Assembly (NCBI RefSeq): GCF_965261555.1
Contig: NZ_OZ253465.1
Coordinates: forward strand, 686,667-750,666
Source of the DNA: Candidatus Palauibacter sp.
GTDB lineage: Bacteria; Gemmatimonadota; Gemmatimonadetes; Palauibacterales; Palauibacteraceae
Reading direction: 5' to 3'
DNA: 64,000 nucleotides
Of this stretch, positions 9,410 through 39,861 are shown one piece after another. Below the pieces are notes generated by a model. The model saw nothing but the letters and a program-made list of their open reading frames with translations. It had not been told where the DNA came from and did not search any database. Each line of letters opens with the position of its first letter. Position 1 is the stretch's first letter. The position numbers and the translations under genes were made by a program.

Positions 9410-9913
9410 ATGATCGACACAAGCCGCAGGCTTCTCTCCACAGCCGCCGCCATGCTGTTCGTGGTGACCCTCACCGGCGCGGGCGGCTCCACGGAGGCCG
9501 TCACGGAGCCCCCGGCCGACGCACCGGCGGCGGCATCGGCCGACGATCCCACCGAGGTGGGGTGGCGCCTCCTGGCCAGCCTCAACTACCGGACCGGCGA
9601 GCCGAGCGAGGAGTTGGCGGCCCTCTCGGGCAAGCTCGTCAAGATCCCCGGATTCACGGTGCCGCTCGAGGACTGGGCGTCCTCGGCGACGGAATTCCTC
9701 CTCGTGCCCTATGTCGGCGCCTGCATCCACACGCCGCCTCCACCGCCCAACCAGCTCGTCTACATCGAGATGGATGAGGGCAAGCGGGCGAAGCTGGACG
9801 GGTGGAACCCGGTGTGGGTCGAGGGCGTGCTGACGATCGAGATGACGGAGAGCGTGTACGGCTACGTCGGTTTCACCCTCTCCGGCCAGCAGGTCTATCC
9901 GTACGAGTCCTGA
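9410..9913 (+). CDS. DUF3299-family periplasmic protein (accessory to FtsX-type ABC exporters)
   Basis: ATG at 9410 with signal peptide; conserved VKIPGFTVPLE..LLVPYVGACIHTPPPPPNQLVYIEM pattern of DUF3299; directly upstream of an ABC ATPase/permease pair. Confidence 0.65.
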   Translation: MIDTSRRLLSTAAAMLFVVTLTGAGGSTEAVTEPPADAPAAASADDPTEVGWRLLASLNYRTGEPSEELAALSGKLVKIPGFTVPLEDWASSATEFLLVPYVGACIHTPPPPPNQLVYIEMDEGKRAKLDGWNPVWVEGVLTIEMTESVYGYVGFTLSGQQVYPYES

Positions 9914-23564: not shown

Positions 23565-25859
23565 TCAGTCGGAGGGCGAAGCGAGGTCGGCGAGCCGCGC
23601 GAAGTGATCTGCCCGCCGGTAGGCCCGTTCCGCGGCGTCCGGGTTCCCGTGCAACTCCTCGGAAACGCCATGGAAGACGTGCGCCATGTAGTACACCCCG
23701 GGGATGTTCGACCTCGTGGACGGATCCGGCCACTCGTCCCATGCCAGGACGTCATCCACGAGGAACACGCCTTCCAGCAGTTCTCCGGTGCGGATCCGGT
23801 CGTTCCACGTCGGCAGCGGCGAGTCGGGAAAGTACTCGCTCAGGTCAACGAGGTTCTCGGAGGCCTCGAGCGGCCCGTCCACGAGCTTGAAGGCGAGTCC
23901 CTGCCGCACGAGGTGCGGCTGAAGTCCCCATTTGCCGTACACCGGTGAGGCCGTCGCCGCGAAGTAGACCGGCCGGTCGCCCAGCGCCTGCCGCGCGATC
24001 TGGAACACGCGGATATCGGCTGGCGATAGAACGTCGCCTTCGCTCAGCGGACCCGTGATCCAGTCGGAAAGCCGATAGGTCGAGTCCTCGGATATGGACT
24101 GTCCCCGCGAGAGGGCATCGATCCCCGTACCGGATGGCGGGACGGCCGAACGCGTCGGCGTCGTCGTGGCCATCTCCGCGTACAGCTCCGCCGCCGTCTC
24201 CGGGTCGAAGGGGCGCTGGCAAACGATGGTCGTGGGGGCATCCTCCGGTGACTCCCCCGGTTCGCACGGCTTCGTCAGCCGCCGCAGCTGCCGGTGGTAC
24301 CAGTCCGTCCCCAGGTACGACTGGACGATGACCGTCACGTCGCGCCGGATCCCCTCCACCTCCTGCAGATACCAGAGCGGGAAGGTGTCGTTGTCGCCGT
24401 AGGTGAAGAGCACGGCGTAGGGTTCGACGGACTGCAGCATGTTGTAGGCGAGGTTGCGCGCCGCGCGGTCTCCGCTCCGGTCGGCCCGGGCAAAGTTGAA
24501 GAAGAAGGGGATGAGGCCGAGCGCGAGGAGCGCGGCCGCCTTCCGGTGCCGGGGGCCGAATCCCGCCGGCACCCGCTCCGGCTCGCGCCCCGCGGCGGAC
24601 GCGGTCCACCGTCCCCACAGGGCGGCGAGCCCGAGTCCGGCGTAGATCCCCCACATCTGGAAACCGATGATGAAGAAGTAGTCGCGTTCGCGGACCTCGT
24701 GGGCCGCGATGCTCGGCGCCTCCTCCCAGTACATCGAGTAGCCGTACCTGAAGTTCAGGTAGTAGACGAGCAGCAGCGTGACGGTGAAGAAGAGCGTGCC
24801 CGCGTAGACGAAGGTCTTCCGGTCCCGGCGCAGGTGGGTCCACAGGCCGACGAGCGCGAGGAAGAGGAAGAGGATGCTCGCGGCGACCCGGGCGCCCGGG
24901 GGCAGCGAGCGCGCCCACTGCCAGTCGAAGTACTGCCAGTAGTTCGCGTACTGGGCCGACAGCGGCGCCTGGCGCAGCGTGACCGGCGTCGGGGCGTACT
25001 GGGCGCGTATCAGCGAGAGGGCGAGCGGTTCGCACGCCACGGCGAGCTTGCTCTGCCCGTAGGGGTCGTCGATCCGCCGCGGCGTGACGGCCGAGAGGAG
25101 CGTCGGACACTCCGGGTCCGCCTCGTCGATGACCGGGTTCTGCGCCGAGCGGATGGGGACGAAGAGGAACTGCAGGGAGTAGCCCACGGCGAGCAGCGCC
25201 ACGGCGGGTCCCAGGACGCGCGGGTTCAGGGCGGCCCGCCAGCGGTGCAGCAGCACGAAGACGGCCAGCGCCAGCGCCGGCAGCATCGACATCGTGTGGT
25301 TCGCCCACCCCAGCCCGAGCAGGAGCGCGATGAGGAGGAGAAGACGGTTCCCGCGCACCGTGTCCGCCCGGTCCATCCAGACCATGGCGAGGTAGCTCAC
25401 GAGGGCCACGACGAACATCGAGAGGGGATAGACCTTCTCGTTCAGGTTCGATTGCGTCCACACCGTGAAGGCGGTGGCCCCGATCCACACGGCGGCGATC
25501 GCGGCGACGAGCACCTCGTGACGGTTCTCGCGGAAGCGCCCGACGATGCGGACGACGGCCAGGAACCAGAAGAAGCTCGCCCCGGCGGAGAGGGTGGCGC
25601 CGAGCGCATTGATCCGCAGCGCGACCGGGAGCCCGGTGAACCCCGTCAGGAGGTCCCACACGCGGCCGACGACGACGAAGAGGGGATTCCCCGGCGGGTG
25701 GGGGAGCCCGAGGATGTGCGCCGTGGTCACGTACTCCGACGCGTCCCAGAACCCGACCGTCGGAGCGAGCGTCAGGAGATAGAGAACCCAGATCGCTGAC
25801 GCGGTCAGCAGCCCCCAGGCCCGTAGCGTCAGCCGGCCGACCTTCTCCCGCTCCACCAC
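23565..25859 (-). CDS. DUF2723-domain polytopic membrane protein (GT-C / PMT-TMEM260-like putative glycosyltransferase), paralog A
   Basis: GFWDASEYVTTAHILGLPHPPGNPLF motif; about 11 TM helices plus a C-terminal soluble domain; start taken as GTG at 25859, 7 nt after the upstream paralog's stop (alternative ATG at 25928 would overlap it by 62 nt). Confidence 0.7.
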   Translation of the reverse strand: MVEREKVGRLTLRAWGLLTASAIWVLYLLTLAPTVGFWDASEYVTTAHILGLPHPPGNPLFVVVGRVWDLLTGFTGLPVALRINALGATLSAGASFFWFLAVVRIVGRFRENRHEVLVAAIAAVWIGATAFTVWTQSNLNEKVYPLSMFVVALVSYLAMVWMDRADTVRGNRLLLLIALLLGLGWANHTMSMLPALALAVFVLLHRWRAALNPRVLGPAVALLAVGYSLQFLFVPIRSAQNPVIDEADPECPTLLSAVTPRRIDDPYGQSKLAVACEPLALSLIRAQYAPTPVTLRQAPLSAQYANYWQYFDWQWARSLPPGARVAASILFLFLALVGLWTHLRRDRKTFVYAGTLFFTVTLLLVYYLNFRYGYSMYWEEAPSIAAHEVRERDYFFIIGFQMWGIYAGLGLAALWGRWTASAAGREPERVPAGFGPRHRKAAALLALGLIPFFFNFARADRSGDRAARNLAYNMLQSVEPYAVLFTYGDNDTFPLWYLQEVEGIRRDVTVIVQSYLGTDWYHRQLRRLTKPCEPGESPEDAPTTIVCQRPFDPETAAELYAEMATTTPTRSAVPPSGTGIDALSRGQSISEDSTYRLSDWITGPLSEGDVLSPADIRVFQIARQALGDRPVYFAATASPVYGKWGLQPHLVRQGLAFKLVDGPLEASENLVDLSEYFPDSPLPTWNDRIRTGELLEGVFLVDDVLAWDEWPDPSTRSNIPGVYYMAHVFHGVSEELHGNPDAAERAYRRADHFARLADLASPSD

Positions 25860-25866
25860 ACTCAAC

Positions 25867-28194
25867 CTAGTTGGCGGGGGCGCCGAGACCCGCAAGGAAC
25901 CCGAAACGGTCCGCGCGCTGGTACGCACGCTCGGCGGCTTCCACGTCGCCCAGGTGCTCCTCCGTCATCCCCTGCAGGTAGTACGCGAGGTAGTACTGGG
26001 CCGGGATGCTCGACTGCGTGGACGGCTCGGGCCACTCCTCCCATCCCAGCACGTCTTCGACCTCGAACACCTCCCACAGCAGTTCCGCCGTGCGCACCCG
26101 GTCGTTCCACGTCGGCGAAATCGTGTTCGGCATGTACTCGCGCAGGTCCACGAGGGCGTCCGTCGCCTCGAGCGGTGCGTCCACGAGCTTGAAGGCGAGC
26201 CCGTGCCGGACGAGGTGCGGCTGCAGCCCCCACTTCCCGTACACGGGCGGGGCGGTCGCCGCGAAGTAGACCGGCCGGTCCCCCAGCGACTGCTGCATGA
26301 TATGGAACACGAGGATGTCGGGGTACAGAATCGAGTCCCCGCCGCGCACCGTCGCCGTCACCGCGCTCGAGACCCGGAACGCCGTGTCACGGGCGACCGC
26401 GATCCCCGGCGTGAGCCCGTCGATCTGCGCGTCGTTCAGGGCGATGATCGAGCGCGTGGGCGGGGTCGCTTCCGCGTCGGCATACGGGCTCGCCGCGTTG
26501 GCCGTGTCGAACGGCCGCTGGCACACGACGGTCGTCGGGGAATCCGCCGCGGACACCCCCGGCTCGCACGGCGTCGTCAGCGACCGCAACTGCTTCGGAT
26601 ACCAGTCCGTGCCGAGGTAGGAGTGGACGATGACGGTCACGTCGCGCCGAATCCCTTCCACCTCCTGCAGGTACCAGAGCGGGAAGGTGTCGTTGTCCCC
26701 GTTCGTGAACAGCACGGCGTACGGCTCGACCGACTGCAGGATGTTGTACGCCCAGTCGCGGGCCGCGCTGTCCTCCGTCCGGTCCGCGCGCGCGAAGTTG
26801 AACAGGAAGGGCACGAAGGCGACGGCGAGGATCGGCGCCGCCCTCCGGTGCCGCGCGCTGAACCCGGCCGGGCGGTCCTGCGGAAGACTCGTCCGGTCCG
26901 TGGGCACCGCGCTCCTCCGTCGATCCGGGGCGGACCAGTTGCCCCACAGCGCGACGAGCCCCAGCCCGGCGTAGATCCCCCACAGCTGGAAGCCGATGAT
27001 GTAGAAGTAGTCCCGCTCCCGGACCTCGTGCTGGAGGATGTTCGGCACCTCCTCCAGGTAGAGGGAGTAGCCGTGCTTGAAATTCAGGTAGTAGACGAGG
27101 AGCAGCGTGACCGTGAAGAAGAGCGTGCCCGCGTAGACGAAGGTCTTCCGGTCGCTCCGGAAGTGGGTCCACAGACCGAGGAGCGCGAGGAAGAGGAAGA
27201 TCATGCTGACGGCAACCCGGCCGCCCGGCGGCAGCGAGCGCGCCCACTGCCAGTCGAAGTACTGCCAGTAGTTCGCGTACTGGCGGTGAAGCGGAGCCTG
27301 GCGCTGCGTGACCGGCCCCGGCCCGTACTGGTCGCGGATGAGCGACAGCGCGAGCGGCTCGCACGCCACCGAGATCTTGCTGTTCCCGAACCGGTCGTCG
27401 ATCACGCTCGGCGTGACGGCCGAGAGGAGCGTCGGGCACTCCGGGTCCGCCTCGTCGATGATCGGGTTCTGCGCCGACCGGATGGGGACGAAGAGGAGCT
27501 GCACCGAGTAGCCGACCGCGAAGAGCGCAACCCCCAGCCCGAGGACGCGCGGGTTCAGCGCGGCCCGCCAGCGGTGGAGGAGGACGAAGAGCGCCAGCGC
27601 CGGGCCCGGCAGCAGCGACATCGTGTGGTTCGACCAGCCCAGGCCGAGCAGGAGCGCGATGAGCACGAGCAGCCGGTTTCCGCGGGCGGTGTCCGCCTCG
27701 TCCACCCACACCATCGTCAGGTAGCTCACGAGCGAGACGATGAAGAGGGAGAGCGTGTAGACCTTCTCGTTCAGATTCGACTGGGTCCAGACGGTGAAGG
27801 CGGTCGCCCCGATCCAGACCGCGACCATCGAGGCCACGAGGATCTCGTGCCGGTTCTCGCGGAAGTGCGCGACCATGCGCGCCACCGCGAGGAAGGAGAA
27901 GAAGCTCGCGCCGGCGGAGAGCGTCGCGCTGAGCACGTTGATGCGGAGCGCGACCGGGAGGCCGGTGAAGCCGAGCAGGAGGTCCCACACGCGGCCCACG
28001 AGGACGAAGAACGGGTTCCCCGGCGGGTGCGGGAGCCCGAGGATGTGGGCCGTGGTCACGTACTCCGACGTGTCCCAGAACCCGGTCGTCGGCGCGATCG
28101 TGAGCAGATAGAGCGACCACACGCCGAGGGCCGTCACAAGCCCCCACAGACGCAACGTCAGCGGACCGATCTTCTCGCGCTCGATACCGTTCAT
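25867..28194 (-). CDS. DUF2723-domain polytopic membrane protein, paralog B (tandem duplicate of 23565..25859)
   Basis: 775 aa, collinear with paralog A along its whole length (GFWDTSEYVTTAHILGLPHPPGNPFF). Confidence 0.75.
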   Translation of the reverse strand: MNGIEREKIGPLTLRLWGLVTALGVWSLYLLTIAPTTGFWDTSEYVTTAHILGLPHPPGNPFFVLVGRVWDLLLGFTGLPVALRINVLSATLSAGASFFSFLAVARMVAHFRENRHEILVASMVAVWIGATAFTVWTQSNLNEKVYTLSLFIVSLVSYLTMVWVDEADTARGNRLLVLIALLLGLGWSNHTMSLLPGPALALFVLLHRWRAALNPRVLGLGVALFAVGYSVQLLFVPIRSAQNPIIDEADPECPTLLSAVTPSVIDDRFGNSKISVACEPLALSLIRDQYGPGPVTQRQAPLHRQYANYWQYFDWQWARSLPPGGRVAVSMIFLFLALLGLWTHFRSDRKTFVYAGTLFFTVTLLLVYYLNFKHGYSLYLEEVPNILQHEVRERDYFYIIGFQLWGIYAGLGLVALWGNWSAPDRRRSAVPTDRTSLPQDRPAGFSARHRRAAPILAVAFVPFLFNFARADRTEDSAARDWAYNILQSVEPYAVLFTNGDNDTFPLWYLQEVEGIRRDVTVIVHSYLGTDWYPKQLRSLTTPCEPGVSAADSPTTVVCQRPFDTANAASPYADAEATPPTRSIIALNDAQIDGLTPGIAVARDTAFRVSSAVTATVRGGDSILYPDILVFHIMQQSLGDRPVYFAATAPPVYGKWGLQPHLVRHGLAFKLVDAPLEATDALVDLREYMPNTISPTWNDRVRTAELLWEVFEVEDVLGWEEWPEPSTQSSIPAQYYLAYYLQGMTEEHLGDVEAAERAYQRADRFGFLAGLGAPAN

Positions 28195-28479: not shown

Positions 28480-29691
28480 TCATCGGTCCTCCGAGCTCGT
28501 GGCGACCTCCGGTGGGAGAGGGTAGAGCGACACGTACTCGATGTCGAGTTCGTCCTGCTCGATGACGATCAAGTGTCGCTCACCGACGCGGGTCAGCCTG
28601 GCGCTCGCGGGGAGGGCGCCGCGCCCGCGGAGACGCCCGTCGGCGTCGAATGCGAGCCAGCGCTGTCCCTCCGGGTCCCCGGGGCGGCGCCACTCCTCCA
28701 CCCAGAAGCCGCCGTCCGGGGCCGCGCGAAGCCCGGAGACCGTACCGAACTGTTCGGCGACCGGCGCCGCGTCGAAGAACCTGAGCGCCTGCCGCCGCTG
28801 CTCCTCGTTGGTCGCGCTCCGGACCGCCTCCTCGCGTGCCGCCGCCACGTGCGCCTCGGTGACGGTGCGGTCGCGCCCCGCCCAGCGGACCAGCCGGGCC
28901 AGTCGGCCGTCGGGATCGAGGATGCGGACCTCGTACGCGTCGCCCATCGCCAGCGCGATGGCGTCGTCGAGGGCGGTCGCGCCGGCGAGCCCTTCGAAAT
29001 GCCGCGCGAGAAGGACCGTCTCTCCCCCGATGTCCACCGGGCCGAGACGCCAGCCCGGGACGTTGAACACCGTGTCCCGGAGCACTCCGGAGCCGGCGAA
29101 GCGAAGCCCGATGAGCGGCGACCAGGTGAAGTCTTCCGAGCGGGTCATCAGGAGGCTCGTGACGAGCACGCTCCCGTCGCCGAAGCGCCCTCCGGGCAGC
29201 GGGGCGGCCGGGAGCGGGCGCATCGGGCTGACCGAGAGGAAACCGCCACCGGCGGTCCAGTAGGCGAGCCTTCGATTCCTCCAGTCATGGATCACGAGGG
29301 AATCCGCCCCCGCGCTCCAGACGCGCTGCGGCAGGCCGATTTCCCGCGGTCCCTGCCCCAGGGATCCGAAGGAGCGGAGAATGCCGCCGTCCGGGGCGAA
29401 CACACGGATGAGCGGCTCGACCTGGCTCACGACCACGACGGAGCCGTCATCCAGTTCGAGGGCGTCGACAATTCGGAACATCTGGTATTCGGGCGGACCG
29501 TCTTGCATGCCCAGGCGCAAGTTGGGCCGAGGCGGCAGGTCGAACTCCGGGATGTCTCCGCGGTTCTCGACGATCTCGACGCCCGCGCTGTCGCGCACCA
29601 CGAAGTCCTGGGCGCGAGCACCGGTCGATGCGTCGCAGGCGAGGCACAGGACGGCGACAGCCAGGATCGTGATCCTCCGGAAGTTGTCCAT
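28480..29691 (-). CDS. NHL-type beta-propeller lipoprotein, array paralog 1
   Basis: Lipoprotein signal MDNFRRITILAVAVLCLAC; blades carrying GQGPREIG-like motifs; C-terminal DELDIEYVSLYPL. Confidence 0.7.
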   Translation of the reverse strand: MDNFRRITILAVAVLCLACDASTGARAQDFVVRDSAGVEIVENRGDIPEFDLPPRPNLRLGMQDGPPEYQMFRIVDALELDDGSVVVVSQVEPLIRVFAPDGGILRSFGSLGQGPREIGLPQRVWSAGADSLVIHDWRNRRLAYWTAGGGFLSVSPMRPLPAAPLPGGRFGDGSVLVTSLLMTRSEDFTWSPLIGLRFAGSGVLRDTVFNVPGWRLGPVDIGGETVLLARHFEGLAGATALDDAIALAMGDAYEVRILDPDGRLARLVRWAGRDRTVTEAHVAAAREEAVRSATNEEQRRQALRFFDAAPVAEQFGTVSGLRAAPDGGFWVEEWRRPGDPEGQRWLAFDADGRLRGRGALPASARLTRVGERHLIVIEQDELDIEYVSLYPLPPEVATSSEDR

Positions 29692-29709
29692 TGGTCTCTC
29701 CCCCTCCCG

Positions 29710-30837
29710 CTATGGGACCCGGGTGAAGCGGACGCGTGCGGCGCGCCAGACATCGAGAGAGTCGCGCGTCGTGCCGTAGAGGGTCGACTCGGTGACCCAG
29801 GGGGAGCCGAGGTGGCTGACGCGGCGCGGCCAGCGGTATCGCGCCACCAGCGTGCGCGCGCGGTAGACGTCGGCCTCGCGCATCTCCTGCCCATCGACCC
29901 CCGTCTTCTCCACCCACAGCCGGCCGCCGCGATCGAAGAAGAGTTCGGCGAGTACCGGCTTGCGGTCCGGGATCCCGTGCGGGTGGTCCCGCAGGTCGAA
30001 TCTCTCCTTCTCCTGGTCGATCCGGGCCTGCGCGCCCTGGCGTTCGTCCGGGCTCAACTCTGGTCCCTGCAGCGGCGCCTGGATCAGCGACGCGCTCCCA
30101 TCGGGATGGTGCAGCGTGACCGCATACGCGGAACTGACCGCCGTGGCCCACCAGCCGCCCGTCCCGTGCCCGTGGATCCACAGCGGGCCGAAGGGCTGGT
30201 AGAGGAAGAATGTGGCGGCCTGGTCCCCCACTCTGATGTCGACCGGGCTGAAGCCGGTGGCCTGCTCCTCTTCCGTCGCCATCGGGACCGTATCCACCGC
30301 CAGGCCCGGCCCCAAGTGGAAACGCGTGAACCGGGTGTCGCCGGCCGCCATCCCGAGATCGACGAGCCGGCCCTCCGCGTCGAAGGTGACCGGAGCGATC
30401 AGGTTGAAGGAGGCGTTCATGCTCCTGAGCCCGCGCGCGTACTCCGCGCCGTCGTCGTCGAGTCTGAACGCGCTGTAGCGGACGCTCTCCCGTACCCACA
30501 GGAGGCCTTCGGGCCCGAAGGTCATGCAGCAGGGATTCGTCAGTTCGCCGGGCCCCTCCCCCTGGCCGCCGAAGCGGAAGGCGAAGCGGCCGTCCGGGTC
30601 GAACACCCGCACCTCGTGCGTCTGATAGTCCGCCACGATCACCCGTCCGCGGTCGTCCTCCACGACGGAGCCGATGGTCGTGAACAGGTAGGGATCCTCC
30701 CCCTCGATCTCGCCGATCTCAAGGTCGATCATGCCCTCGAAGACCGGAATTTCGGGAGGCGGAGCCGGGGCACCGCTATCGACACACGCGGCGACTCCCC
30801 CCAACAGCGCGACCGCGACCGGGATTCGGGGCTTCAC
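29710..30837 (-). CDS. NHL-type beta-propeller lipoprotein, array paralog 2
   Basis: GTG start at 30837 overlaps the upstream stop (GTGA); signal VKPRIPVAVALLGGVAAC; GQGEGPGELTNP blade motif. Confidence 0.7.
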   Translation of the reverse strand: MKPRIPVAVALLGGVAACVDSGAPAPPPEIPVFEGMIDLEIGEIEGEDPYLFTTIGSVVEDDRGRVIVADYQTHEVRVFDPDGRFAFRFGGQGEGPGELTNPCCMTFGPEGLLWVRESVRYSAFRLDDDGAEYARGLRSMNASFNLIAPVTFDAEGRLVDLGMAAGDTRFTRFHLGPGLAVDTVPMATEEEQATGFSPVDIRVGDQAATFFLYQPFGPLWIHGHGTGGWWATAVSSAYAVTLHHPDGSASLIQAPLQGPELSPDERQGAQARIDQEKERFDLRDHPHGIPDRKPVLAELFFDRGGRLWVEKTGVDGQEMREADVYRARTLVARYRWPRRVSHLGSPWVTESTLYGTTRDSLDVWRAARVRFTRVP

Positions 30838-32045
30838 GAACCGGATCGGTCGAGGGTCCAGGACTCCACGTACTCGATGTCGAGTTCGTCGTCCCGCGTG
30901 CCGAGGATGTAGTCCTCGCCAATCTCCGTGACGTCGAAGCTCCCGGGCATCTCGACCAGGCCGAGGACGCGTCCCTCCGGGTCGAACACGGTCCACAGCC
31001 GGTGCTCTTCCCCGGGAAGCCGGTATTCCTCGACCCAAAGGTGCCCGAGACGGTCGACGAACACCCCGTTGAAGGCGGGGAACGCCTCGACGAGCGGCAT
31101 GCCCGCAACCGCGTCGAGCGCCTCGGGCCGGTCGGGGTTCTGGCGGACGACGTAGTCACGCAGGTCGGCCCGGGTTGGAGCGCGGGCCTCGTGGTCGCGA
31201 CGGACGATCCTCGCCAGCGACCCGTCCGCGCGATATCCGCGGATCTCATAGCGGTCGTTCGTGGTGATGACGATCAGGTCACCCCATGCGAACGCGAACG
31301 CGCGGCGAGCGAACGGGTAGGCCCGGGGAAACGTCCTCTCGGCGGTAGTGGCGACGTACAGTTCCGATCCGGGGTACGCGCCCAGGTCCCGGTGTACGCT
31401 CCCGTCCGCCTCCAGAATCCCGTATTCGAGGTCCGGGCGCGTGAGTTCCGACGTGCCCGGCGTGCCGCCCGAGTACGACGTGAGGGTCTGGGCCAGGATC
31501 CTCCCGTCCGGAAGCTGGCCGACCGCGCTCTCGTAGCGGCCCTGCAGCCTGAAGGCGCGACCGAACGTTCCGCGCGCGGAGAAGACGGACAGCCGGCGCT
31601 GGAACGGCTCCCTGGCCATCAGCGAATCGCCCGCCCACCGCTCCAGACTCGCCGGAGCCATGGCGCCGAATTCGCCCGGACCGTCGCCCTGGCCTCCCCA
31701 CGACTCGAGGTGGACGCCGTCGGAGTCGAAGACGCGGAGTTCGCCGGAACCCGCGTTGGCGACCACGATCCGCCCGTCGGAAAGCCGCATCGCGTCGTAG
31801 GCGCGGAAGAGTTCGTACGCCGGATCTCCCGCCGGGGACCCGATCGTCACGGCCGGTGCCTCCCCTACCCGCCATCCCAGTCGCGAATCGAGCGGAGGCC
31901 GCTCGTTCTCGACGATCGTGACCCCGGCGCTGTCCCTGACGACGCTTCTCGGGCTTCCGCGGCCATCCCCACCGCCGTCACCACCACCCGCACACGCCAA
32001 CCCCACCATACCCGCGAGGAGGGCCGTCAGAGTTCTCCCGTCCAT
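30834..32045 (-). CDS. NHL-type beta-propeller lipoprotein, array paralog 3
   Basis: Signal LLAGMVGLACAGG; GQGDGPGEFG motif; C-terminal DELDIEYVESWTL. Confidence 0.7.
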   Translation of the reverse strand: MDGRTLTALLAGMVGLACAGGGDGGGDGRGSPRSVVRDSAGVTIVENERPPLDSRLGWRVGEAPAVTIGSPAGDPAYELFRAYDAMRLSDGRIVVANAGSGELRVFDSDGVHLESWGGQGDGPGEFGAMAPASLERWAGDSLMAREPFQRRLSVFSARGTFGRAFRLQGRYESAVGQLPDGRILAQTLTSYSGGTPGTSELTRPDLEYGILEADGSVHRDLGAYPGSELYVATTAERTFPRAYPFARRAFAFAWGDLIVITTNDRYEIRGYRADGSLARIVRRDHEARAPTRADLRDYVVRQNPDRPEALDAVAGMPLVEAFPAFNGVFVDRLGHLWVEEYRLPGEEHRLWTVFDPEGRVLGLVEMPGSFDVTEIGEDYILGTRDDELDIEYVESWTLDRSGS

Positions 32046-32319
32046 GACTCTCCCCTATTGGCTCGGTTCCATCGTACCGAACCGGGGACACGATCAGCGG
32101 CGGGTTGGTTGTGCGGAGGTCGAGCTACCCCGCCAGGTGGACGCCCGGGACAGCGCCCCCCTTTGCCGGAACGCAAGAGCCCCGAGGACGAGAAGCGCCC
32201 TCGGGGCCCTTACCCCAGCGTCTTGCTGCACCCGAAGGCCTTTTGCAGTAGAGGACGACCTGAGGCATACACTTGTAGGATCGTCAACTCTCAGCCAAAC
32301 CGCAACCTGCGGAGTTGCT

Positions 32320-33033
32320 ATGCTACCCATCGAAGGCCTTCGAAGTGCGCTTTCAGCGGAGCGGCTGAGTGCCTACGCTCTCCCTGAGGACACCGACGAG
32401 ATCGACTGCGTGGCCAGGTATCTGTGGAATCTGGCGCGGTGCAGCGCCCTCCAACCGGCGCTTCATACCCTTGAAATTACCGTCCGGAACCGCCTTTTCG
32501 ACATCTCCAGAAAGATCATCGATGAGACCAAGCTCAGTCATGACAAGGTTCCGTGTTGGCTCGATGCTCGACCTTCGCTGCTTGCCGAACCCGAGCGTGA
32601 CGCCGTCGAGAAGGCGAAAGCAACGATCTTGGGACGGAGGAGTCCGCTGACCGAGGGCCGGCTTGTCTCGGTCCTGGGGTTTGGTTTCTGGGTGAGCCTG
32701 TGCAAACGGTCATATGAACAGGGGCGCACGGGTGGGCCGCGCCTCTGGCCCGAGTTGGCGACGAGGGGATTCCCGCATCCGCCCAACGCCAGGCGCACAC
32801 GAAGCCAGATCTTCCACGCCCTGAATCCACTCCGCGAACTACGCAACCGCGTTTCTCACCACGAAGCCGTTTGGGACCGGAAGCTCGACCGAAGCCATCG
32901 AGAGATCCTCGAGACCATAGCCTGGATCAACCCCGAATTGGCGGCGACCCTGGAGAAACACTCGCCGCTGCCGGCAGTACTCGACCGGGGCGTCGCCGGT
33001 TTCCGCGCTCAGGCCGAGGCGATCGTCAAGTGA
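32320..33033 (+). CDS. Abi-like protein (Abi_2 / AbiD-AbiF family, abortive-infection-type)
   Basis: In-frame ATG at 32320; LSAERLSAYA..YLWNLARCSAL..LEITVRNRL..LRELRNRVSHHEAVW matches the Abi_2 hallmark pattern; local GC is clearly lower than the flanks. Confidence 0.7.
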   Translation: MLPIEGLRSALSAERLSAYALPEDTDEIDCVARYLWNLARCSALQPALHTLEITVRNRLFDISRKIIDETKLSHDKVPCWLDARPSLLAEPERDAVEKAKATILGRRSPLTEGRLVSVLGFGFWVSLCKRSYEQGRTGGPRLWPELATRGFPHPPNARRTRSQIFHALNPLRELRNRVSHHEAVWDRKLDRSHREILETIAWINPELAATLEKHSPLPAVLDRGVAGFRAQAEAIVK

Positions 33034-33049
33034 CGCCGGCCGGCTTTGC

Positions 33050-34261
33050 CTACTGTCGAGGTCGCTCTGCCAGTTCGTACACGACGACGTTTTGTATGTC
33101 GAGGTCGTCCCTCAGCACGCCGAGGACGAGGGCTCCGGTCACGTCGAGGATCTGGAACCTCGGCGGCGTCTCGACCTGTCCCAGCCACTCTCCGTCCGGG
33201 GAAATGACGGTGTACGGGGACCCCTCTTCCGGGTAGGCGGGCCGGTAGGAGGGCAGCCATATGTTGCCGTCCGCGTCGGCGAAGGGGGTACTGAAGAACG
33301 GAATCGGCTGGCCGATCATGGCGCGATACCGGTCCATGTCTTCCTGAATGATCTCCTCGAGCCGGGCATCGGACACTCCGTAGTGCCTCCGGCCCAACGC
33401 TCGATTATAGGCCTCGCCGTGCTCCAGGAGTTCCTCGGCCAGCAGGTTGGGCTCGGGACGCCAGCGCACGATCTGGGTTACCCTGCCGTCCGGCAGGCGC
33501 CAGGCGATCTCGGGCCTGTCGGACCTCGTATGGACGAACCGCCCCGCCGCGACCGCGACCTCGCCGATGGGCCGGATGATCAGACGCGGCTGCTCCGACC
33601 GCTGTCGCGGGTAGTGGTCGTACGACGCCACCGTGTCGAGGGCGCCGGTTTCGATATCGAACAGGGTCATGTGCCCGGCGAGCCACTCCTCCTCTATGTC
33701 GATCCAGAGACGGTGGGGGTATCGGTCCATCATCATCAGCTCGCCGGATGAACCGATCCCCGCCACACCGAAGTGCGCTGCCCGCGGGAGGTTCACGATG
33801 CGCGCGACCGAATCGCCGACGAAGAGCGTGAGGCGGGACTGACGATCATCAGGCACAAGGACGCTGTCCTGGCCCAGGACGAACACCGCGTAGGGGGAGA
33901 TGACTTCGCCCGGTCCCTCTCCTGCCCTGGCGAGCACCTCGTGCGTCGCGCCGTCCGGACTCAGGACGATCACTTCGCTGTACCAGGCAACGACCGCGCT
34001 TCCATCCGGCAAGAGCCGGCCGGCGTCGACGAACTGAAACTCGTAGTCGCCGGGGTTGGCTCCGTGCCGGTACAGCGGCTCGGCCGCGAGGGTGAAGGGA
34101 GCCTCGACCTCCGGCACACCTGCGTACTCGACGATCCGCACGCCCGTGCTGTCCCGGATCTGGACCTGGATCTCGCCGGCGGGCCCGGCGTCGCCCCCGC
34201 AGGCAGCGAGGGCCGCCGCCAGAATCAGTACGCGGCTCGGCGTGAGTACGCGGCGCGTCAC
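33050..34261 (-). CDS. NHL-type beta-propeller lipoprotein, array paralog 4
   Basis: GTG at 34261 overlaps the upstream stop (GTGA); signal VLILAAALAACGG; GEGPGEV motif; C-terminal DLDIQNVVVYEL. Confidence 0.7.
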   Translation of the reverse strand: MTRRVLTPSRVLILAAALAACGGDAGPAGEIQVQIRDSTGVRIVEYAGVPEVEAPFTLAAEPLYRHGANPGDYEFQFVDAGRLLPDGSAVVAWYSEVIVLSPDGATHEVLARAGEGPGEVISPYAVFVLGQDSVLVPDDRQSRLTLFVGDSVARIVNLPRAAHFGVAGIGSSGELMMMDRYPHRLWIDIEEEWLAGHMTLFDIETGALDTVASYDHYPRQRSEQPRLIIRPIGEVAVAAGRFVHTRSDRPEIAWRLPDGRVTQIVRWRPEPNLLAEELLEHGEAYNRALGRRHYGVSDARLEEIIQEDMDRYRAMIGQPIPFFSTPFADADGNIWLPSYRPAYPEEGSPYTVISPDGEWLGQVETPPRFQILDVTGALVLGVLRDDLDIQNVVVYELAERPRQ

Positions 34262-35367
34262 CGGGCGAAGGGCAGGTTCGCGATGTCGTACCAGTCGAGG
34301 GCTCGGTCCGGAATCCCGTCGCCATCGTCCGGCCCCACCTGCCGATCGACGAGCACGACCAGAGTCGACCCCAGGAGGTCGAAGGCCCTGAGCCGGTCCC
34401 GGACCCGCACCGACCCGACGTATTCGGCGTCGTCGTACACGTCCAGCCAAGACCATTCGTGCTGGTCGCGGCCCGTGGCGACCCAGTAGCGGTTGGCGGC
34501 GTCGAAGAGATGCTCGCCCGCGGACAGATAGTAGTGCTTCGGAGTGGCGCTATACCTCTCCAACCCCTCGTCGATGGCGGGCGTGCGCGGGAGACCCTGC
34601 GATCTGTTGAGGGCCAGGAGTTCCTCTTCCCGCCGGGCCAGGTCCCGCTCGTTCGGGAGTTCCGGGACGTAAGTCGGTGCGCGGAGCACCGTGGCGTCGC
34701 CGGCGTCGCCGACGAAGACCAGATGCCCTTCGCAGGCCACGAACGCCCAGCCCCCGGCCGGGTCCGGGATACCATGGATGATCTGCCCGCACTCGATGCC
34801 CCACGGACCGGGCGGCGACTCTTCCTGCCCCACCGTCTCCCCGGAGGCGAGGTCCACCTCGTACCGGGTCATCAGCGATCCGGACATCCGGCCGAGCATC
34901 ACCATGTAGTCCAGCGACACGCCTGAAATCGCGGTGCCGAACGATGGGAAGGGCTGGAATACATCCGGGAGCAGCACATCCGACACGTAGACGCCCGATG
35001 GCTCGAAGACCGTGAAGCGGCCCAGGTCGGAATCCACCACGCCGACCGTTCCCGCCTCTCCGCGAGCGAGAGACGTGGGATCGCCGAACTCCCCGGGACC
35101 TTCGCCCTCGCGCCCGAAGACTCCCACGACGCCGCCTTCACCCGCCACGCAGCGGACCTGCCCTTCGTAGGAGTCGATGACGCAGGCGGTTCGCTCGTCT
35201 GCGAGCAGCGCGACTTCCTCGCTCTCGCTCAGGGGCACGGCGGCCGTGCCGATCAACTCGGGCGTGAAGACGGCCTCGTCTGTGGCTTCACCCGAACCGC
35301 ACGCCACGGCGATGACCAGGAGTGGAAGGCACGCGCCCGCGCGGCCGCGCGGAACGCGGATGGTCAT
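34258..35367 (-). CDS. NHL-type beta-propeller lipoprotein, array paralog 5 (more divergent)
   Basis: ATG (Met75 of the track ORF) overlaps the upstream stop (ATGA); signal LPLLVIAVACGSG; REGEGPGEFG motif. Confidence 0.65.
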   Translation of the reverse strand: MTIRVPRGRAGACLPLLVIAVACGSGEATDEAVFTPELIGTAAVPLSESEEVALLADERTACVIDSYEGQVRCVAGEGGVVGVFGREGEGPGEFGDPTSLARGEAGTVGVVDSDLGRFTVFEPSGVYVSDVLLPDVFQPFPSFGTAISGVSLDYMVMLGRMSGSLMTRYEVDLASGETVGQEESPPGPWGIECGQIIHGIPDPAGGWAFVACEGHLVFVGDAGDATVLRAPTYVPELPNERDLARREEELLALNRSQGLPRTPAIDEGLERYSATPKHYYLSAGEHLFDAANRYWVATGRDQHEWSWLDVYDDAEYVGSVRVRDRLRAFDLLGSTLVVLVDRQVGPDDGDGIPDRALDWYDIANLPFAR

Positions 35368-36812
35368 GACTTCTCCAGGGAATAGAGGCGGACGTATTCG
35401 ACGCCCCGGCTGTCGCTCCATACGCCGAGCAGGTAGTCGTCGCCGATCTCGAGGCCGGGGGCCATGCTCGCGATGAACCCCCGGTTCAACCCTGCCGGGA
35501 CGGAGACGCTGCCCAGCCAGGTGCCGTCCGCGGCGAAGACCTCGAACGGCGCCACTTCGATCCCCGCGCCGAAGAACGGCTCCACCCACAGACTCCCCGT
35601 CTCATCCAGGCGGATGGACCGCAGCACGGGGAGCGTCGGAGCCCTCGGATCGTCGCGGCGACGACGCCCCATTCCCTCCGCCTGCTCGCGCGAGACGCCG
35701 CCGTACATGACGTTCGTCTCAATGTACTCCTCGATCTCCGCGTCCACGTGGGCGTCCGTGACGGGGACCGGGGCGATGTCGCGACTGAGGATCCGCCTCG
35801 TCCCGCCGTCCTCGAGGGAGATCGACCGTATGTGGAACGCCTCCGTATCGACTGCCGCGAGCGTCCCGGGAGTGACAGCGAACCGCGGCCCTTTCCCGAA
35901 GTCGTAGCCGATGTAGGCGACGTTCTCGCCGTACCGCGCGATCACCTGCTCCGCGCCGGGGAAGTCCGAGACCGCCCGGATCGCGCCGTCGGCCAGGTCG
36001 AAGGTCGCGACTCTGACGGCGGGCCATCGCACGACCCCTCCCTCCGGCATCTCGGTATTGTCCGTGAAGGCCATGACGAGATCGCGACCCGAGACGCCGA
36101 GCGCGCGCTGCGGCATGGATCCGCTCCAAGGCGATTCGACGGGGAGCGTGCGGACGAGTTCGCCCGCCGCGTCGAAGATCTGCACGCGCCCGAGCGCGAG
36201 GTCGTACGTGACGAGCGAGTCGCCGGCGAGCACGCCGAGGAAGGAGAGGAACCGGTGTTCGCCGGGCCCTTCGCCTTCTCCGGCCGCGCGCCACACGAAG
36301 GTTCCCGCGGCATCGTAGCGGCGGAGTTCGCCGGAGCCCCCGTCCCCGAGAACGATGTCGCCGGAGCCGAGGCGGACCGCGCCGACCACGCCGTCGAGTT
36401 CGTAGTCGGGATCTCCGGTCGCGGTCCCGATCTCGAGCAGCGGCGGCTCGCCCACGGTCCAGCCCTCGCCCGGGCCCCACGCCGGCTCGACGGCCGTGGC
36501 GATGGCCACGCCGGCCGAGTCCGAGTGCAGCGTGCCCGCCGGCGCCCCCGCCGAATCGCAGGCTTGCACGGCGAGCACGACCGAGAGTGGAACGAAAGCG
36601 CCCGCGCGCCATGGGGTCGGCCGGCCCGCGCTCCACCGACGGCGAGTCAGGAGGCGGGCTCCCGCGACAACGACCAGAGCTGGACGTATTCGACACCCAA
36701 CTCGTCGGATACCCATCCCAGCAGGTAGTCCTCGCCGATCTCGAAGATGCGGAGGCCGGCCGGGGTCTCGACCAGGCCCTGGACCCGTCCCTCCGCGTCG
36801 AAGACGGTCCAC
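35364..36812 (-). CDS. NHL-type beta-propeller lipoprotein, array paralog 6 (start uncertain)
   Basis: GEGEGPGEH motif and C-terminal RGVEYVRLYSLEKS; lipobox ..LSVVLAVQAC near residue 85 of the track ORF, so the true start probably lies within about 36650-36720; the track start overlaps paralog 7 by 166 nt. Confidence 0.6.
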   Translation of the reverse strand: MDRLRRGGTGPGPGRDPGRPPHLRDRRGLPAGMGIRRVGCRIRPALVVVAGARLLTRRRWSAGRPTPWRAGAFVPLSVVLAVQACDSAGAPAGTLHSDSAGVAIATAVEPAWGPGEGWTVGEPPLLEIGTATGDPDYELDGVVGAVRLGSGDIVLGDGGSGELRRYDAAGTFVWRAAGEGEGPGEHRFLSFLGVLAGDSLVTYDLALGRVQIFDAAGELVRTLPVESPWSGSMPQRALGVSGRDLVMAFTDNTEMPEGGVVRWPAVRVATFDLADGAIRAVSDFPGAEQVIARYGENVAYIGYDFGKGPRFAVTPGTLAAVDTEAFHIRSISLEDGGTRRILSRDIAPVPVTDAHVDAEIEEYIETNVMYGGVSREQAEGMGRRRRDDPRAPTLPVLRSIRLDETGSLWVEPFFGAGIEVAPFEVFAADGTWLGSVSVPAGLNRGFIASMAPGLEIGDDYLLGVWSDSRGVEYVRLYSLEKS

Positions 36813-37984
36813 ACGGCGGCTTCGTACGCCCGCACCCAGAGATAGCCGGCACGGTCCGACAGAACCTCCTCGAAGGCGGGATACGACTCCACCAGCGGCA
36901 TGTCCCGCACGGCATCGAGGCTGCTGCGTCGGTCCTCGTCGGGGAGATCCGCGTAGCGCTGGGCGTAGTACTCGTCCAGATCGGCCTGCGTGGGGCGCTC
37001 CAGGTCACCGTCGCAGCGTACCACCCTGACCAGCGACCCATCGGAGGCGAAGGCCTTGATCTCGTAGCTGTCCTGCACGCCGATCGCGGCGAGTTCTTCC
37101 CACACGGCCCCCGTGGTGCCGCGACCGAAGGGGTGAGGCATGCCGCCCTGGAGGCTGCCGTCCGCCTCGAAGATGGCGTAGAACTCGCTTCCCGGAAATT
37201 CGCCGAGCGAAGCGAACCGCGCGCCGTGTTCGTCCAGGATTCCCCATTCCGCGCTGGAGCGGACGAGGCCCGAGGACCCTGTCATGTCCATGTTGAGGCC
37301 ACCTCCGCTACCGCGGGTGAAGATCTTCCCGTCCGGGAGCAGGTCCACGACGTTGAGCATGGTGGGGTCGAGGGATACGTCACGACCGTGGTTCCCCTCC
37401 GCATCGAACAACGACAGGCGGGTGCCCCAGGGATTCACGGCGGCGATCGAGTCGCCGGGCCACGAGGCCACGGCGCTCGGGCTGTAGCTGACGAACTCCC
37501 CCGGGCCCTCGCCCCGGCCTCCCGCCGTCGCGGAGTGGGAGCCGTCCGCGTTGAAGATTCTGAGTTCGTTGCTGCCCGAGTTGGCGATGACGATCCGGCC
37601 CTCCGCGAGCCGGGTGGCGTCGGTGACGCGGAACAACTGGTCGGCTCCGCCGCCGTCAACGGCGCCGATCGAAAGGGACGGCTCCGCGCCGAACGTCCAC
37701 GGCAGCCGCGTGTCCAGCGCGGGCGCCGGGTTCTCCACGATGCTGACGCCGGCGCTGTCACGGATCGCCGCCACGAGCCCCCGGTCGCCGTTCTCGACGG
37801 TGCCCTCGCACCCCACGGCGGGAAGGGCCAGCGCGAGGATGCCGGTTGCGAGGCACCCCGTGGTGGCCGGCCGGGGCGGTGAGATCGGACCCGGCGCGCT
37901 CGCAGGCCGAGAGAGGAGTGGCCAGGGCCCCGGGACCCGGGAGCCGCGGATTCTCGGATGGCGGCGACGCCTATGGTCTCGCAT
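36647..37984 (-). CDS. NHL-type beta-propeller lipoprotein, array paralog 7 (start uncertain)
   Basis: Lipobox GILALALPAVGC; GRGEGPGEF motif; C-terminal DELGVEYVQLWSLSREPAS; about 40 aa of N-terminal extension in the track ORF is probably not translated. Confidence 0.6.
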   Translation of the reverse strand: MRDHRRRRHPRIRGSRVPGPWPLLSRPASAPGPISPPRPATTGCLATGILALALPAVGCEGTVENGDRGLVAAIRDSAGVSIVENPAPALDTRLPWTFGAEPSLSIGAVDGGGADQLFRVTDATRLAEGRIVIANSGSNELRIFNADGSHSATAGGRGEGPGEFVSYSPSAVASWPGDSIAAVNPWGTRLSLFDAEGNHGRDVSLDPTMLNVVDLLPDGKIFTRGSGGGLNMDMTGSSGLVRSSAEWGILDEHGARFASLGEFPGSEFYAIFEADGSLQGGMPHPFGRGTTGAVWEELAAIGVQDSYEIKAFASDGSLVRVVRCDGDLERPTQADLDEYYAQRYADLPDEDRRSSLDAVRDMPLVESYPAFEEVLSDRAGYLWVRAYEAAVWTVFDAEGRVQGLVETPAGLRIFEIGEDYLLGWVSDELGVEYVQLWSLSREPAS

Positions 37985-38001: not shown

Positions 38002-39861
38002 TCAGGGTTCTGAGTTCAAGACGCCCACTTGCCGCGGGATGTCAACGAGTGCGGAGCGCTCGAAGCGGACGCGGCCTTGGGCGTCGAGGACGAAGTTGGC
38101 TTGGATCGCGTACACGCCGAACGCGTCCGTCGCGTCGTCCTCAAGATCGTAGTAGACGGGATACGTGATCCCGCGCTCCTCAATGAACGCATCCATCTCC
38201 ACCCCCGCCGGATCCCGCCAGGCGATAGACAGCACCCGTGCGCCCAGGCGCTCCATCGTCTCCTGAAGACGCACCACGTCCGGGATCTTCTGGACGCACG
38301 GCGGACACCACCGGGCCCAGAAGATGACCACAGTGGGTTTTCCGGCGGTCAGGTCGGCCAGTGTGTGCCGGTTTCCGCCCGCATCGGTTACCTGAGCGTC
38401 GCCGGGGGTCCACTCCACGGCAGCGGACAGGACATTGGGCAACACCTGAACGGTCCCGGCGTCGAGCAGGTCGCGCCATTCGGGGCCGTCGGGGTCGTGA
38501 CCGACCAGCATGGCGAGCGAGTCGGCCTCTTCCGGGGACGTGATCGGGTCGGAGGCCAACGCCGCGTAGGCACGCGCAGCGCCCTCCACGTCGCCGGCAT
38601 TCAGCTTCAACTCGCCGAGGATCTCGAACAAATCCGGGCTCGCTGACCGGGTCGTCGCCTCCTCGACGATTCCCATGGCCGCGTCCGGGCTCGCGAATTC
38701 GTTGAGAAACCTGGCGTAGTCCTTCAACAGGGCACCGCGCTGGACGGCGACCGATTGAGCGTGCTCGTCGGCGGTTCGCCCCAGCGGCCGGACCGGGTCC
38801 GGCAACTCATAGCGCACCCTCGCGAGTTCCACGGCGCGTGAGCGACGCTCAGGGATCACGGCAATCATTCGGGGCAGCGCCAATCCCACCAACCCATAGG
38901 GGAACAAACGCTCGACCCATCGGTCCAGTGCGTTGAGGTCCCTCGCCGCGATGGCGAGCTCAAAGGCGAAAGCCTCAAACGGGCTCGTTGTCCCCTGGGC
39001 GTCCGGCCAATGACGCTCGAATTCGGCCAGCGCCAGCGCCGTATCTCCGTCGGTCTCCAATCGCGTCAAGGTCCTCCATCCGATGTCCATGGCCCAGGCG
39101 TCCGTCCCAGCCGTCTGTTCGGCGATAGACGTCCAGTGGGCACCACCCTCTTGGTGGAGCACGGCGGCGGCATAGCCGGAAAGCCCCTGGATCGCGGACA
39201 GCGAGAGTTCTTCGCTACGGTCCTTGTAGTGTTCGTGCAGCTCGGCGAAATGCGCCTGGTGCCACGCGAAGAGGCTGTCGCCTGTGGTCGATCCCAGAGC
39301 CGATCTCTCGAAAGAGCGAAGCTCACTCCAGCCGTCGAGCGAGTCCGGATACAACTCCATTGCACGGCGAAGCGCCTCCAGCGATGTGTGCACGTTCCGA
39401 TCCTCGAACTCGTCGGCCCGGCGCCTGAACGCGTGGTAGAGTGGCCTGTCGTCCGGTGCGTGCACGAGGAGATCGAAGAGCCGACCGCTGTTCGCGTCGA
39501 GCCGCTCGCCCGTCGCGTCCTCCACAACGAAGGCGGCGTAAACCGCGGCTTCCGGCAGGGTGAACCGCGTAGAAAAAGTGCCGCCGGATCCTCGGTTCAT
39601 GGTGGGGATCGTGAGCAGCCTCTCCTCGAGCCGAACCCGCCAGGACTTGTCATCGGCGGTTCCATACGTGCCACGCAGCACAAGTTCGGGTGCGTCGGCA
39701 AGCGTCCCGATCGGCGTATACGTGACCGTAATCTCGTCGCCCGCCATCGGGCGTTCGGGGGCGAAACGAAGCCCGGTCTCCCCTGGTGCCGTCTCCCGTG
39801 CGCAGGATAGCGCAGTTCCCACCGCGAGGGAGAGCGCAATCGCTCTGGACATTCTGATCAT
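38002..39861 (-). CDS. TlpA-like thiol-disulfide oxidoreductase lipoprotein with a long helical (TPR-like) N-terminal domain
   Basis: Signal MIRMSRAIALSLAVGTALSC; C-terminal thioredoxin fold with VVIFWARWCPPCVQ (CxxC). Confidence 0.75.
   Translation of the reverse strand: MIRMSRAIALSLAVGTALSCARETAPGETGLRFAPERPMAGDEITVTYTPIGTLADAPELVLRGTYGTADDKSWRVRLEERLLTIPTMNRGSGGTFSTRFTLPEAAVYAAFVVEDATGERLDANSGRLFDLLVHAPDDRPLYHAFRRRADEFEDRNVHTSLEALRRAMELYPDSLDGWSELRSFERSALGSTTGDSLFAWHQAHFAELHEHYKDRSEELSLSAIQGLSGYAAAVLHQEGGAHWTSIAEQTAGTDAWAMDIGWRTLTRLETDGDTALALAEFERHWPDAQGTTSPFEAFAFELAIAARDLNALDRWVERLFPYGLVGLALPRMIAVIPERRSRAVELARVRYELPDPVRPLGRTADEHAQSVAVQRGALLKDYARFLNEFASPDAAMGIVEEATTRSASPDLFEILGELKLNAGDVEGAARAYAALASDPITSPEEADSLAMLVGHDPDGPEWRDLLDAGTVQVLPNVLSAAVEWTPGDAQVTDAGGNRHTLADLTAGKPTVVIFWARWCPPCVQKIPDVVRLQETMERLGARVLSIAWRDPAGVEMDAFIEERGITYPVYYDLEDDATDAFGVYAIQANFVLDAQGRVRFERSALVDIPRQVGVLNSEP

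Follow-up and report, generated by a model that had tools for sequence, protein, structure and literature searches.

A 64,000-nucleotide (nt) stretch of a Candidatus Palauibacter (Gemmatimonadota) genome (contig NZ_OZ253465.1, positions 686,667–750,666; hereafter ‘the window’) carries an abortive-infection-type gene, abi, beside a divergently encoded small RNA. The segment holding both—positions 32163–33040 of the window—is probably a self-contained mobile AbiF-like type III toxin–antitoxin/abortive-infection module, with the small RNA as its antitoxin. The protein has an intact HEPN motif; the structured RNA is tightly linked to its gene, moves with it, has a conserved single-stranded loop of pyrimidines and is preceded by a predicted promoter. 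These features fit the logic of AbiF type III toxin–antitoxin systems. The features of the unit are as follows.

32163–33040, both strands: the whole conserved two-gene unit, supported as mobile, with the small RNA running leftward and abi rightward (blastn against relatives; guanine-plus-cytosine (GC) content).
32320–33033, plus strand: abi, encoding an AbiD/F-like (Abi_2 superfamily, PD-T4-5-related) HEPN protein of 237 amino acids (aa) (translation, alignment, profiles, model).
32311–32314, plus strand: Shine-Dalgarno sequence GGAG, 5 nt before the ATG (read from the sequence; kept in close relatives).
32277–32305, minus strand: predicted sigma-70-type promoter of the small RNA, overlapping the 5’ leader DNA of abi (positional conservation across 114 loci).
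32209–32271, minus strand: core of the small RNA, a 62-nt hairpin (covariance model R2, 73.2 bits, E=2e-15; covariation; the minus strand folds better).
32175–32211, minus strand: second hairpin with a GC-rich 16–18-bp stem, read as an intrinsic terminator (inverted repeat I1).
32163–32174, minus strand: U-rich tail after the terminator, CUCUUGCGUUCC, at the left edge of the unit (homology with relatives stops at 32163–32170).

Translation of the window confirmed a plus-strand open reading frame (ORF) of 237 aa, open throughout, and the strings LSAERLSAY, YLWNLARCSA, LEITVRNRL and LRELRNRVSHHEAVW are all present in its product, as an initial annotation of this stretch had described. With a GC content at third codon positions (GC3) above 0.8 as the coding signature for ORF calling in this ~69% GC genome, abi emerged as the only convincing plus-strand gene in a single minus-strand block of ~23.5–44.7 kb, in agreement with the claim of a lone plus-strand gene in a 15-kb block. 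Its flanking spacers measure 274 nt upstream (32046–32319), as previously given, and 16 nt downstream (33034–33049) instead of 17. The reported drop in base composition is real, with the ORF at 62.0% GC and a GC3 of 0.72 as compared to 66–71% and 0.79–0.95 in neighbouring genes; the background, however, is ~69% (window mean 68.9%) and not ~72%. What had been treated as an empty upstream spacer harbors, over ~110 of its 274 nt, a conserved small-RNA gene.

A database search places the protein sequence in Candidatus Palauibacter, with ~45 orthologue clusters at 72–88% identity and further relatives tailing down to 26% identity, many of them with Pfam PF07751 (Abi_2). When the members of a 56-sequence family alignment were scanned against Pfam, 47 matched Abi_2 at E≤0.01 (best 1.5e-9), and about 16 of 117 database relatives carry a precomputed match to the same family. 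Residues S12, R15, Y34, E52, R56, N57, W80, F121-G-F-W124, R175, N176 and H180 are invariant in the alignment. The HEPN R-phi-xxx-H (RNxxxH) motif is intact (R175-N176-R-V-S-H180), and E52-x3-R56-N57 forms a second conserved motif. The conserved motifs follow the same order as in AbiFCd, and hhalign aligned R175/H180 to the catalytic R202/H207 of that protein. An AlphaFold model built on the alignment is all-helical (predicted local distance difference test 94.6, predicted template modelling score 0.90), and Foldseek returned 8vz6_A, the PbAbiF dimer bound to its noncoding RNA (ncRNA), as the best and sole notable PDB fold match of the model (prob 0.89).

PD-T4-5 (PDLC04038) was the only PADLOC model matched by the window protein (E=5.2e-15, aa 10–200, profile positions 13–220 of 309), and the plasmid relatives of the protein likewise matched this model alone (window protein and relatives, 1e-13 to 1e-19). 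PD-T4-5 itself is an E. coli plasmid gene that provides abortive-infection defence against T4 and is a distant AbiF/D relative (Vassallo et al. 2022, PMC9519451). Classical AbiF of phage phiC2 matched the PADLOC AbiD model (7e-95) and not PD-T4-5, while L082, a 334-aa relative of the window protein, matched the PD-T4-5 profile at 2.6e-43 (positions 10–275). On profile evidence, the window protein represents a short and divergent offshoot of the AbiD/F (Abi_2) HEPN superfamily, nearest to PD-T4-5 yet not PD-T4-5; because L082 scores as it does on PD-T4-5 and has no detectable copy of the RNA upstream, we place the window protein in a shorter sister clade. Beyond PADLOC, searches with the window protein yielded zero matches in NCBIfam and a weak match only, to a family of unknown function, in PHROGs; its exact sequence had no record, and in a PDB sequence-profile search 8vz6_A scored no better than E=0.3. 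A search of E. coli genomes for a PD-T4-5 homologue by way of the Enterobacter plasmid copy gave no match.

The small RNA is ~100 nt long and encoded on the minus strand upstream of abi, from ~32270 to ~32163. Its core hairpin comprises stem A (CCUCAG/CUGGGG), stem B (CGUC/GACG), stem C (CUGC/GCAG) and an apical stem capped by a cUUCGg tetraloop, with a conserved internal loop of CCUCUA/CAA. At distant loci (39–60% protein identity; Longimicrobiales, a Planctomycetota metagenome-assembled genome (MAG), metagenomes), the sequence of the element has changed and the pairing is kept. The copies in Dehalococcoidia, Frankia, Bryobacterales and Pyxidicoccus consist of a single minus-strand hairpin, CCCCGG-nnGUC-CUCU-[stem-loop]-UGAU-GAC-CCGGGG, followed by UUUUU.

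Covariation strongly supported this structure. A hand-made alignment of the core hairpin (A6; 23 sequences with a hand-assigned 17-bp structure), from which the covariance model R2 was built, had 88.8% of its cells paired, as opposed to 77.6% upon shuffling (0/500) and 37–45% when pairing partners were slid. Compensatory changes occurred in 12 of the 17 pairs, and double-change cells numbered 47 against 14 expected. Among 71 distinct sequences aligned by the model—an alignment fitted to the model and hence biased toward the structure—91.6% of cells were paired (75.4% when shuffled), 172 double-change cells stood against 56 expected, and 14 of 17 pairs covaried.

The RNA is tightly linked to abi. 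R2 detected the motif upstream of 105 of 151 homologous loci (those with at least 200 nt of upstream sequence), on the strand opposite abi; this orientation held for 120 of 124 R2 matches, and only seven matches fell elsewhere in 1.04 Mb. The distance between the 5’ end of the motif and the estimated first codon of abi had a median of 51 nt (interquartile range 36–53). The motif is also present in provirus contigs and on plasmids, and the module spans Gemmatimonadota, Chloroflexota, Actinomycetota, Myxococcota, Acidobacteriota, Bacteroidota, Cyanobacteria and Pseudomonadota, including Pseudomonas and Enterobacter plasmids. Scans with Rfam (gathering and lax thresholds) and for tRNA and tmRNA returned nothing relevant.

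Individual loci depart from this pattern. Plasmid copies from Enterobacter (L177, 2282–2485) and Pseudomonas syringae (L178, 2297–2482) have CCUAGG instead of CCCCGG in the closing stem, with TATACT in front; both hairpins score under the R2 threshold, so that the true rate is higher than the 70% detected. At two loci (L005, 9857–9942; L014, 4811–5000), insertions of 85–190 nt lie between the abi ORF and the RNA with its promoter, so the ~50-nt spacing is not obligatory. Second R2 matches lie away from the queried gene in Frankia-type loci (L071, 2200–2251; L067, 7965–8015) and may mark further copies of the module.

Several lines of evidence assign the RNA to the minus strand. Summed over 16 loci, minimum free energies amounted to −863 kcal/mol on the minus strand and −803 kcal/mol on the plus strand, whose A·C mismatches turn into G·U pairs on the minus strand. 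The element of the window folds at −55.7 kcal/mol (z −4.2) on the minus strand versus −43.5 kcal/mol (z −3.1) on the plus strand, and the cUUCGg apical loop exists on the minus strand only. The same is true of the long uninterrupted stem with G·U pairs at 32175–32211, the sequence of which varies among relatives with the pairing always kept. Within the 14 nt that follow the hairpin, T makes up 49% against a background of 20%, and TTTT is found at 71 of 114 loci, again on the minus strand only. Taken in plus-strand order, the first hairpin and the conserved A-tract ahead of it become, on the minus strand, a GC hairpin with a U-rich tail.

Upstream of the hairpin, we predict a −35 element TTGCGG (32300–32305), a 17-nt spacer and a −10 element GATCCT (32277–32282), followed after 6 nt by a start G at 32270. 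Across the 114 loci, TAnnnT hexamers cluster 10–13 nt upstream of the first position of the model (77 occurrences, 41 of them at −11), with TTGnnn elements ~17 nt further upstream in many phyla; the copy on Picosynechococcus pAQ5 has a perfect TATAAT. These elements are better conserved than anything visible for an abi promoter. With an RNA 5’ end 36–53 nt from codon 1, the RNA promoter falls on the DNA of the abi leader. The small RNA and abi probably share a compact bidirectional promoter region, and transcriptional interference between them is possible.

These observations bear on a reading of abi as a single-gene Abi or defence gene, as in the initial annotation, in which the upstream block would be a plus-strand promoter, leader or riboswitch-like attenuator, as is RCd22. 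There is precedent, as RCd22 is a 5’ leader co-transcribed with AbiFCd on the strand of the gene (PMC12373285). Moreover, the plus-strand model R1 also scores the element, because the hairpin is nearly strand-symmetric, and the core G·U/A·C counts are ambiguous. Yet conservation ends exactly at the minus-strand U-tail tract, which leaves the plus strand without a conserved promoter upstream of the hairpin; the minus strand is favoured by its T-rich tail, by positioned −10 and −35 elements, by the cUUCGg loop and by a lower folding energy; and the hairpin of distant relatives runs directly into UUUUU on that strand. We therefore consider a single gene with a leader improbable. The plus-strand 5’-leader model (A3/A4, R1) was dropped for the better folds, the U-tails, the positioned promoter and the UUCG loop of the minus strand.

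Just as unlikely, in our estimate, is a genuine divergent RNA that acts by base-pairing in a type I-like or antisense manner, repressing abi translation or transcription by way of its CCUCU loop, which resembles an anti-Shine-Dalgarno sequence, by overlapping the leader or by promoter interference, instead of by protein binding. CCUCU is able to pair with GGAG, the promoter of the RNA overlaps abi leader DNA with its 5’ end at the distance from codon 1 given above, and the RNA bears a weak Rfam resemblance to the anti-Shine-Dalgarno small RNA mmgR (19.7 bits against a 41-bit cut-off). In the window, 10 nt of the apical stem-loop are complementary to abi codons 4–7, but this match is limited to the subclade of the window. 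Pairing of the RNA with the abi translation-initiation region gave predicted duplex energies no better than those of shuffled controls at 10 loci (z −2.2 to +1.3), and protein-binding RNAs typically show such strong covariation over a long, irregular hairpin. CCUCU itself sits in a structured internal loop, similar to the loop/bulge nucleotides in the active site of PbAbiF–AbiFr (PMC12737573). The complementarity to the apical stem-loop (32233–32242) coincides with a palindrome, TCGAAGGCCTTCGA, at 32330–32343 (abi codons 4–8), present in the same subclade only.

The RNA and abi move as one piece. When the window was compared by blastn with loci in unrelated contexts, DNA homology was limited to 32163/32170–33037/33041, at 77–92% identity; this conserved ~880-bp unit consists of the abi ORF plus ~150 nt of upstream non-coding DNA. 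The left edge of conservation is abrupt, and the non-coding block is conserved at least as well as the ORF. GC content amounts to 62.1% within the unit and 69.0% in the remaining window, and was 2–8 points below the flanks in 12 of 12 genomes checked (the window genome and 11 others). Orthologues (72–88% identity) in other Palauibacter-like genomes reside in unrelated surroundings: between arginase and HTH-Peptidase_M78 genes; in an LRR/M66 protease array beside integrases; between a gamma-glutamyltranspeptidase gene and a group II intron with IS21; between aminotransferase and histidine phosphatase genes; after recA-recX; immediately upstream of a type I restriction–modification (R-M) operon; and beside IS110. 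These data support horizontal mobility of the unit. The related genome L011 holds it at the same site of the same paralog array, with colinear flanks and 88.8% nucleotide identity, which dates the insertion to before the split of the two genomes. The acquisition by horizontal transfer that the initial annotation proposed is thus upheld as regards mobility, with its varied contexts and low GC, but the insertion is neither recent nor unique, being common to L011.

Regarding the ends of the unit, a search for transposon-like termini or target-site duplications found only short repeats at chance level. In L002 (~9735–9850), a ~55-nt direct duplication lies immediately outside the terminator of the small RNA; it could be the scar of an insertion or a target that was duplicated. 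In L171 (6001–9615), a relative at 60% identity, the abi ORF and a type I R-M operon, hsdM-hsdS-AAA_13, overlap where the operon begins, a defence-island context that the window lacks.

Very unlikely is a function outside toxicity and defence, as a HEPN RNase with housekeeping or regulatory duties, conserved in its lineage and paired with an RNA (such as a processing enzyme with its substrate or guide): near-full-length orthologues (about 72–90% identity) do occur in very many Palauibacter-like MAGs and no defence island surrounds abi in the window, but the location differs in almost every genome, the GC content is foreign, neighbours elsewhere are often type I R-M genes, integrases, insertion sequence (IS) elements, a group II intron or helix-turn-helix (HTH)-M78 genes, distant homologues occur on 995 plasmid records and 69 provirus contigs, and the nearest characterised relatives are abortive-infection systems.

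AbiF–ncRNA systems have been known since 2025, and the finding is in this sense not categorically new. AbiD/F proteins and their adjacent ncRNAs are experimentally established type III toxin–antitoxin systems, wherein the ncRNA binds the HEPN dimer and fills its active site, the proteins are toxic without the ncRNA, and the DNA upstream of the genes is more conserved than the genes (PMC12373285, PMC13064643, PMC12737573). In PbAbiF, loop/bulge nucleotides of AbiFr occupy the active site (PMC12737573). With AbiF–AbiFr and AbiFCd–RCd22, the module described here shares a small HEPN protein—predicted here to be all-helical—with RNxxxH, the same motif order and PbAbiF as best, though weak, structural match; a highly conserved structured ncRNA adjoining the gene; and carriage on plasmids, prophages and islands. 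It differs in having a single copy of the RNA instead of two motifs, and in a protein of 237 rather than 287–300 aa that matches PD-T4-5 and not the AbiD model and scores under the Pfam cut-off.

At the RNA level, the abiF consensus of RF03085, CCCGCC-A-AGC-CUCUCA...GCU-CAAAUC-GGCGGG-U, compares with CCCCGG-nn-GUC-CUCUM-[stem]-UGAU-GAC-CCGGGG-U here. The two RNAs have in common a GC-rich closing stem of 6 bp and a second, short stem; in both, CUCU stands on the 5’ side of the loop and a U trails at the end. The RNA here differs by one more stem within the loop and by where the asymmetric loop is placed, and it doubles as or precedes a terminator. We describe the small RNA as abiF-like in the sense of resemblance only.

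Other known systems are less close. PD-T4-5, which is toxin–antitoxin-like and plasmid-borne and provides the sole PADLOC model matched, is described as a single gene. ToxIN, AbiQ and CptIN follow the same logic of an RNA antitoxin with an endoribonuclease toxin and have abortive-infection roles, but the fold of the ToxN toxin is unrelated to HEPN and their antitoxins are same-strand upstream tandem repeats processed by the toxin; no tandem repeats were found in 31950–33250. Cas13 likewise combines HEPN RNxxxH chemistry with a hairpin RNA partner; in the present case, however, there is one HEPN domain per chain, CRISPR arrays and spacers are absent, and nothing points to a guide function.

A number of results weigh against the assignment to an AbiF-like module. 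At the protein level, the window protein alone missed the gathering cut-off of Pfam Abi_2 (14.8 versus 25.6 bits, E=0.036, covering only aa 163–186, the RNRVSHHE stretch); the initial annotation had named the lack of a significant Abi_2 match as refuting its proposal, and the Abi_2 identity that it put forward holds for the family, through the 47 of 56 matches, the PADLOC match and RNxxxH, and not for this protein taken singly. The hhalign comparison of the family profile with one AbiFCd sequence was weak (E=0.03, probability 1.7%), as was the fold match to 8vz6_A (Foldseek E=0.37, template modelling score 0.46). At the RNA level, Rfam abiF (RF03085) had no match in the window (gathering threshold or E≤10), in 35 related loci or in a targeted 161-nt scan; as a positive control, it was found 75–110 nt upstream of abiF in phage phiC2, on the strand of the gene, at 37.6 bits. 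Conversely, R2 did not detect the RCd22 abiF motif. The RNA here is divergent with its own predicted promoter, whereas the known RNAs are co-transcribed on the strand of the gene. L082 (4669–5933), the most PD-T4-5-like relative, has no RNA motif upstream and a bidirectional terminator only; the RNA may be specific to the clade of short (~215–260 aa) proteins. Core-hairpin counts of G·U versus A·C (30 vs 19 and 15 vs 19) do not settle the strand, and the minus-strand call draws instead on promoter elements, U-tail, UUCG loop, the hairpin of the terminator and the edge at which conservation ends. Finally, the −10 element of the window (GATCCT) is weak, and a strict consensus scan of the window retrieved no promoter at all and missed the terminator hairpin of the RNA, its sole terminator-like site lying inside the abi ORF; the promoter and terminator calls therefore rest on positional conservation across loci, not on consensus strength.

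As an AbiF-like type III module, the unit could function as follows. The abi product would be a small HEPN ribonuclease of the AbiD/F (Abi_2) superfamily that, by analogy to PbAbiF and AbiFCd, should dimerize such that two RNxxxH motifs form one active site. The minus-strand RNA, from its predicted sigma-70-type promoter, would start ~50 nt upstream of the ATG and run away from abi. Bound to the RNase, it would block the active site as an antitoxin; upon its loss, displacement or out-titration, be it through phage infection or loss of the module, the RNase would be freed and growth arrested. Toxicity, RNA–protein binding and a defence role we infer from the published AbiF work; what the sequence analysis itself shows is abi and its place in the family, a conserved and structured RNA tightly linked to abi on the opposite strand, and a unit that moves. 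Rfam 15 lacks this RNA, which is encoded divergently under a predicted promoter of its own and occurs widely in phyla and plasmids; the pair therefore appears to be a novel version of an otherwise known kind of system. The published catalogue of AbiF ncRNAs may already list it. More tentatively, and with rather less confidence than we place in the module as such, we suggest that a short AbiD/F / PD-T4-5-related HEPN clade may have this RNA family as its cognate partner and probable antitoxin, which would constitute an ‘inverted’ architecture of the AbiF–ncRNA system from which Cas13–crRNA (CRISPR RNA) is thought to derive.

In the window, the unit is flanked by two members of a family of seven paralogous lipoproteins with weak matches to DUF5128 (6-bladed beta-propeller), 21–35% identity and an invariant lipobox Cys.

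30834–32045, minus strand: DUF5128-type lipoprotein paralog upstream of the unit (ORF and profile evidence).
33050–34456, minus strand: lipoprotein paralog convergent with abi (ORF evidence); its true start is probably downstream of the first ATG of the ORF.

The seven-paralog array spans 28480–37984 and is dynamic: 29719–35360 is colinear with L011 at 88.8% identity, and the paralog at 28480–29691 has no orthologue there. A functional link between abi and this surface-lipoprotein family, raised by the initial annotation, found no support: none of the 10 proteins neighbouring abi in the window matched a PADLOC model, and the contexts elsewhere are different. Adjacent to the array, 38002–39861 (minus strand) encodes a 619-aa lipoprotein-like protein with TPR repeats fused to a C-terminal AhpC/TSA-redoxin domain. 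On its other side lies a tandem pair of paralogous ~780-aa membrane proteins (23565–25928 and 25867–28194, minus strand); the 25867–28194 copy has a TMEM260-like protein O-mannosyltransferase domain (Pfam E=2.6e-40), and the 23565–25928 copy was called a paralog from its translation alone.

AbiF and its ncRNA have recently become the established model for the ancestor of Cas13 and its crRNA, AbiF having been proposed as the ancestor of Cas13 (PMC12737573, PMC12165695). If our interpretation is true, a large sister clade with a structurally distinct RNA partner, transcribed separately and divergently, would widen the range of RNA–HEPN pairings from which RNA-guided systems could evolve, and many ‘Abi family protein’ genes annotated as single genes would be two-component systems. 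The covariance model is ready for annotating the missing second component beside ‘Abi family protein’ genes, of which there are hundreds on plasmids, prophages and chromosomes, with a bearing on cloning and toxicity, on PADLOC/DefenseFinder-type prediction and on the reading of single-gene defence screens. For this Palauibacter genome, the abi locus would be a mobile toxin/defence cassette rather than a feature of the lipoprotein array.

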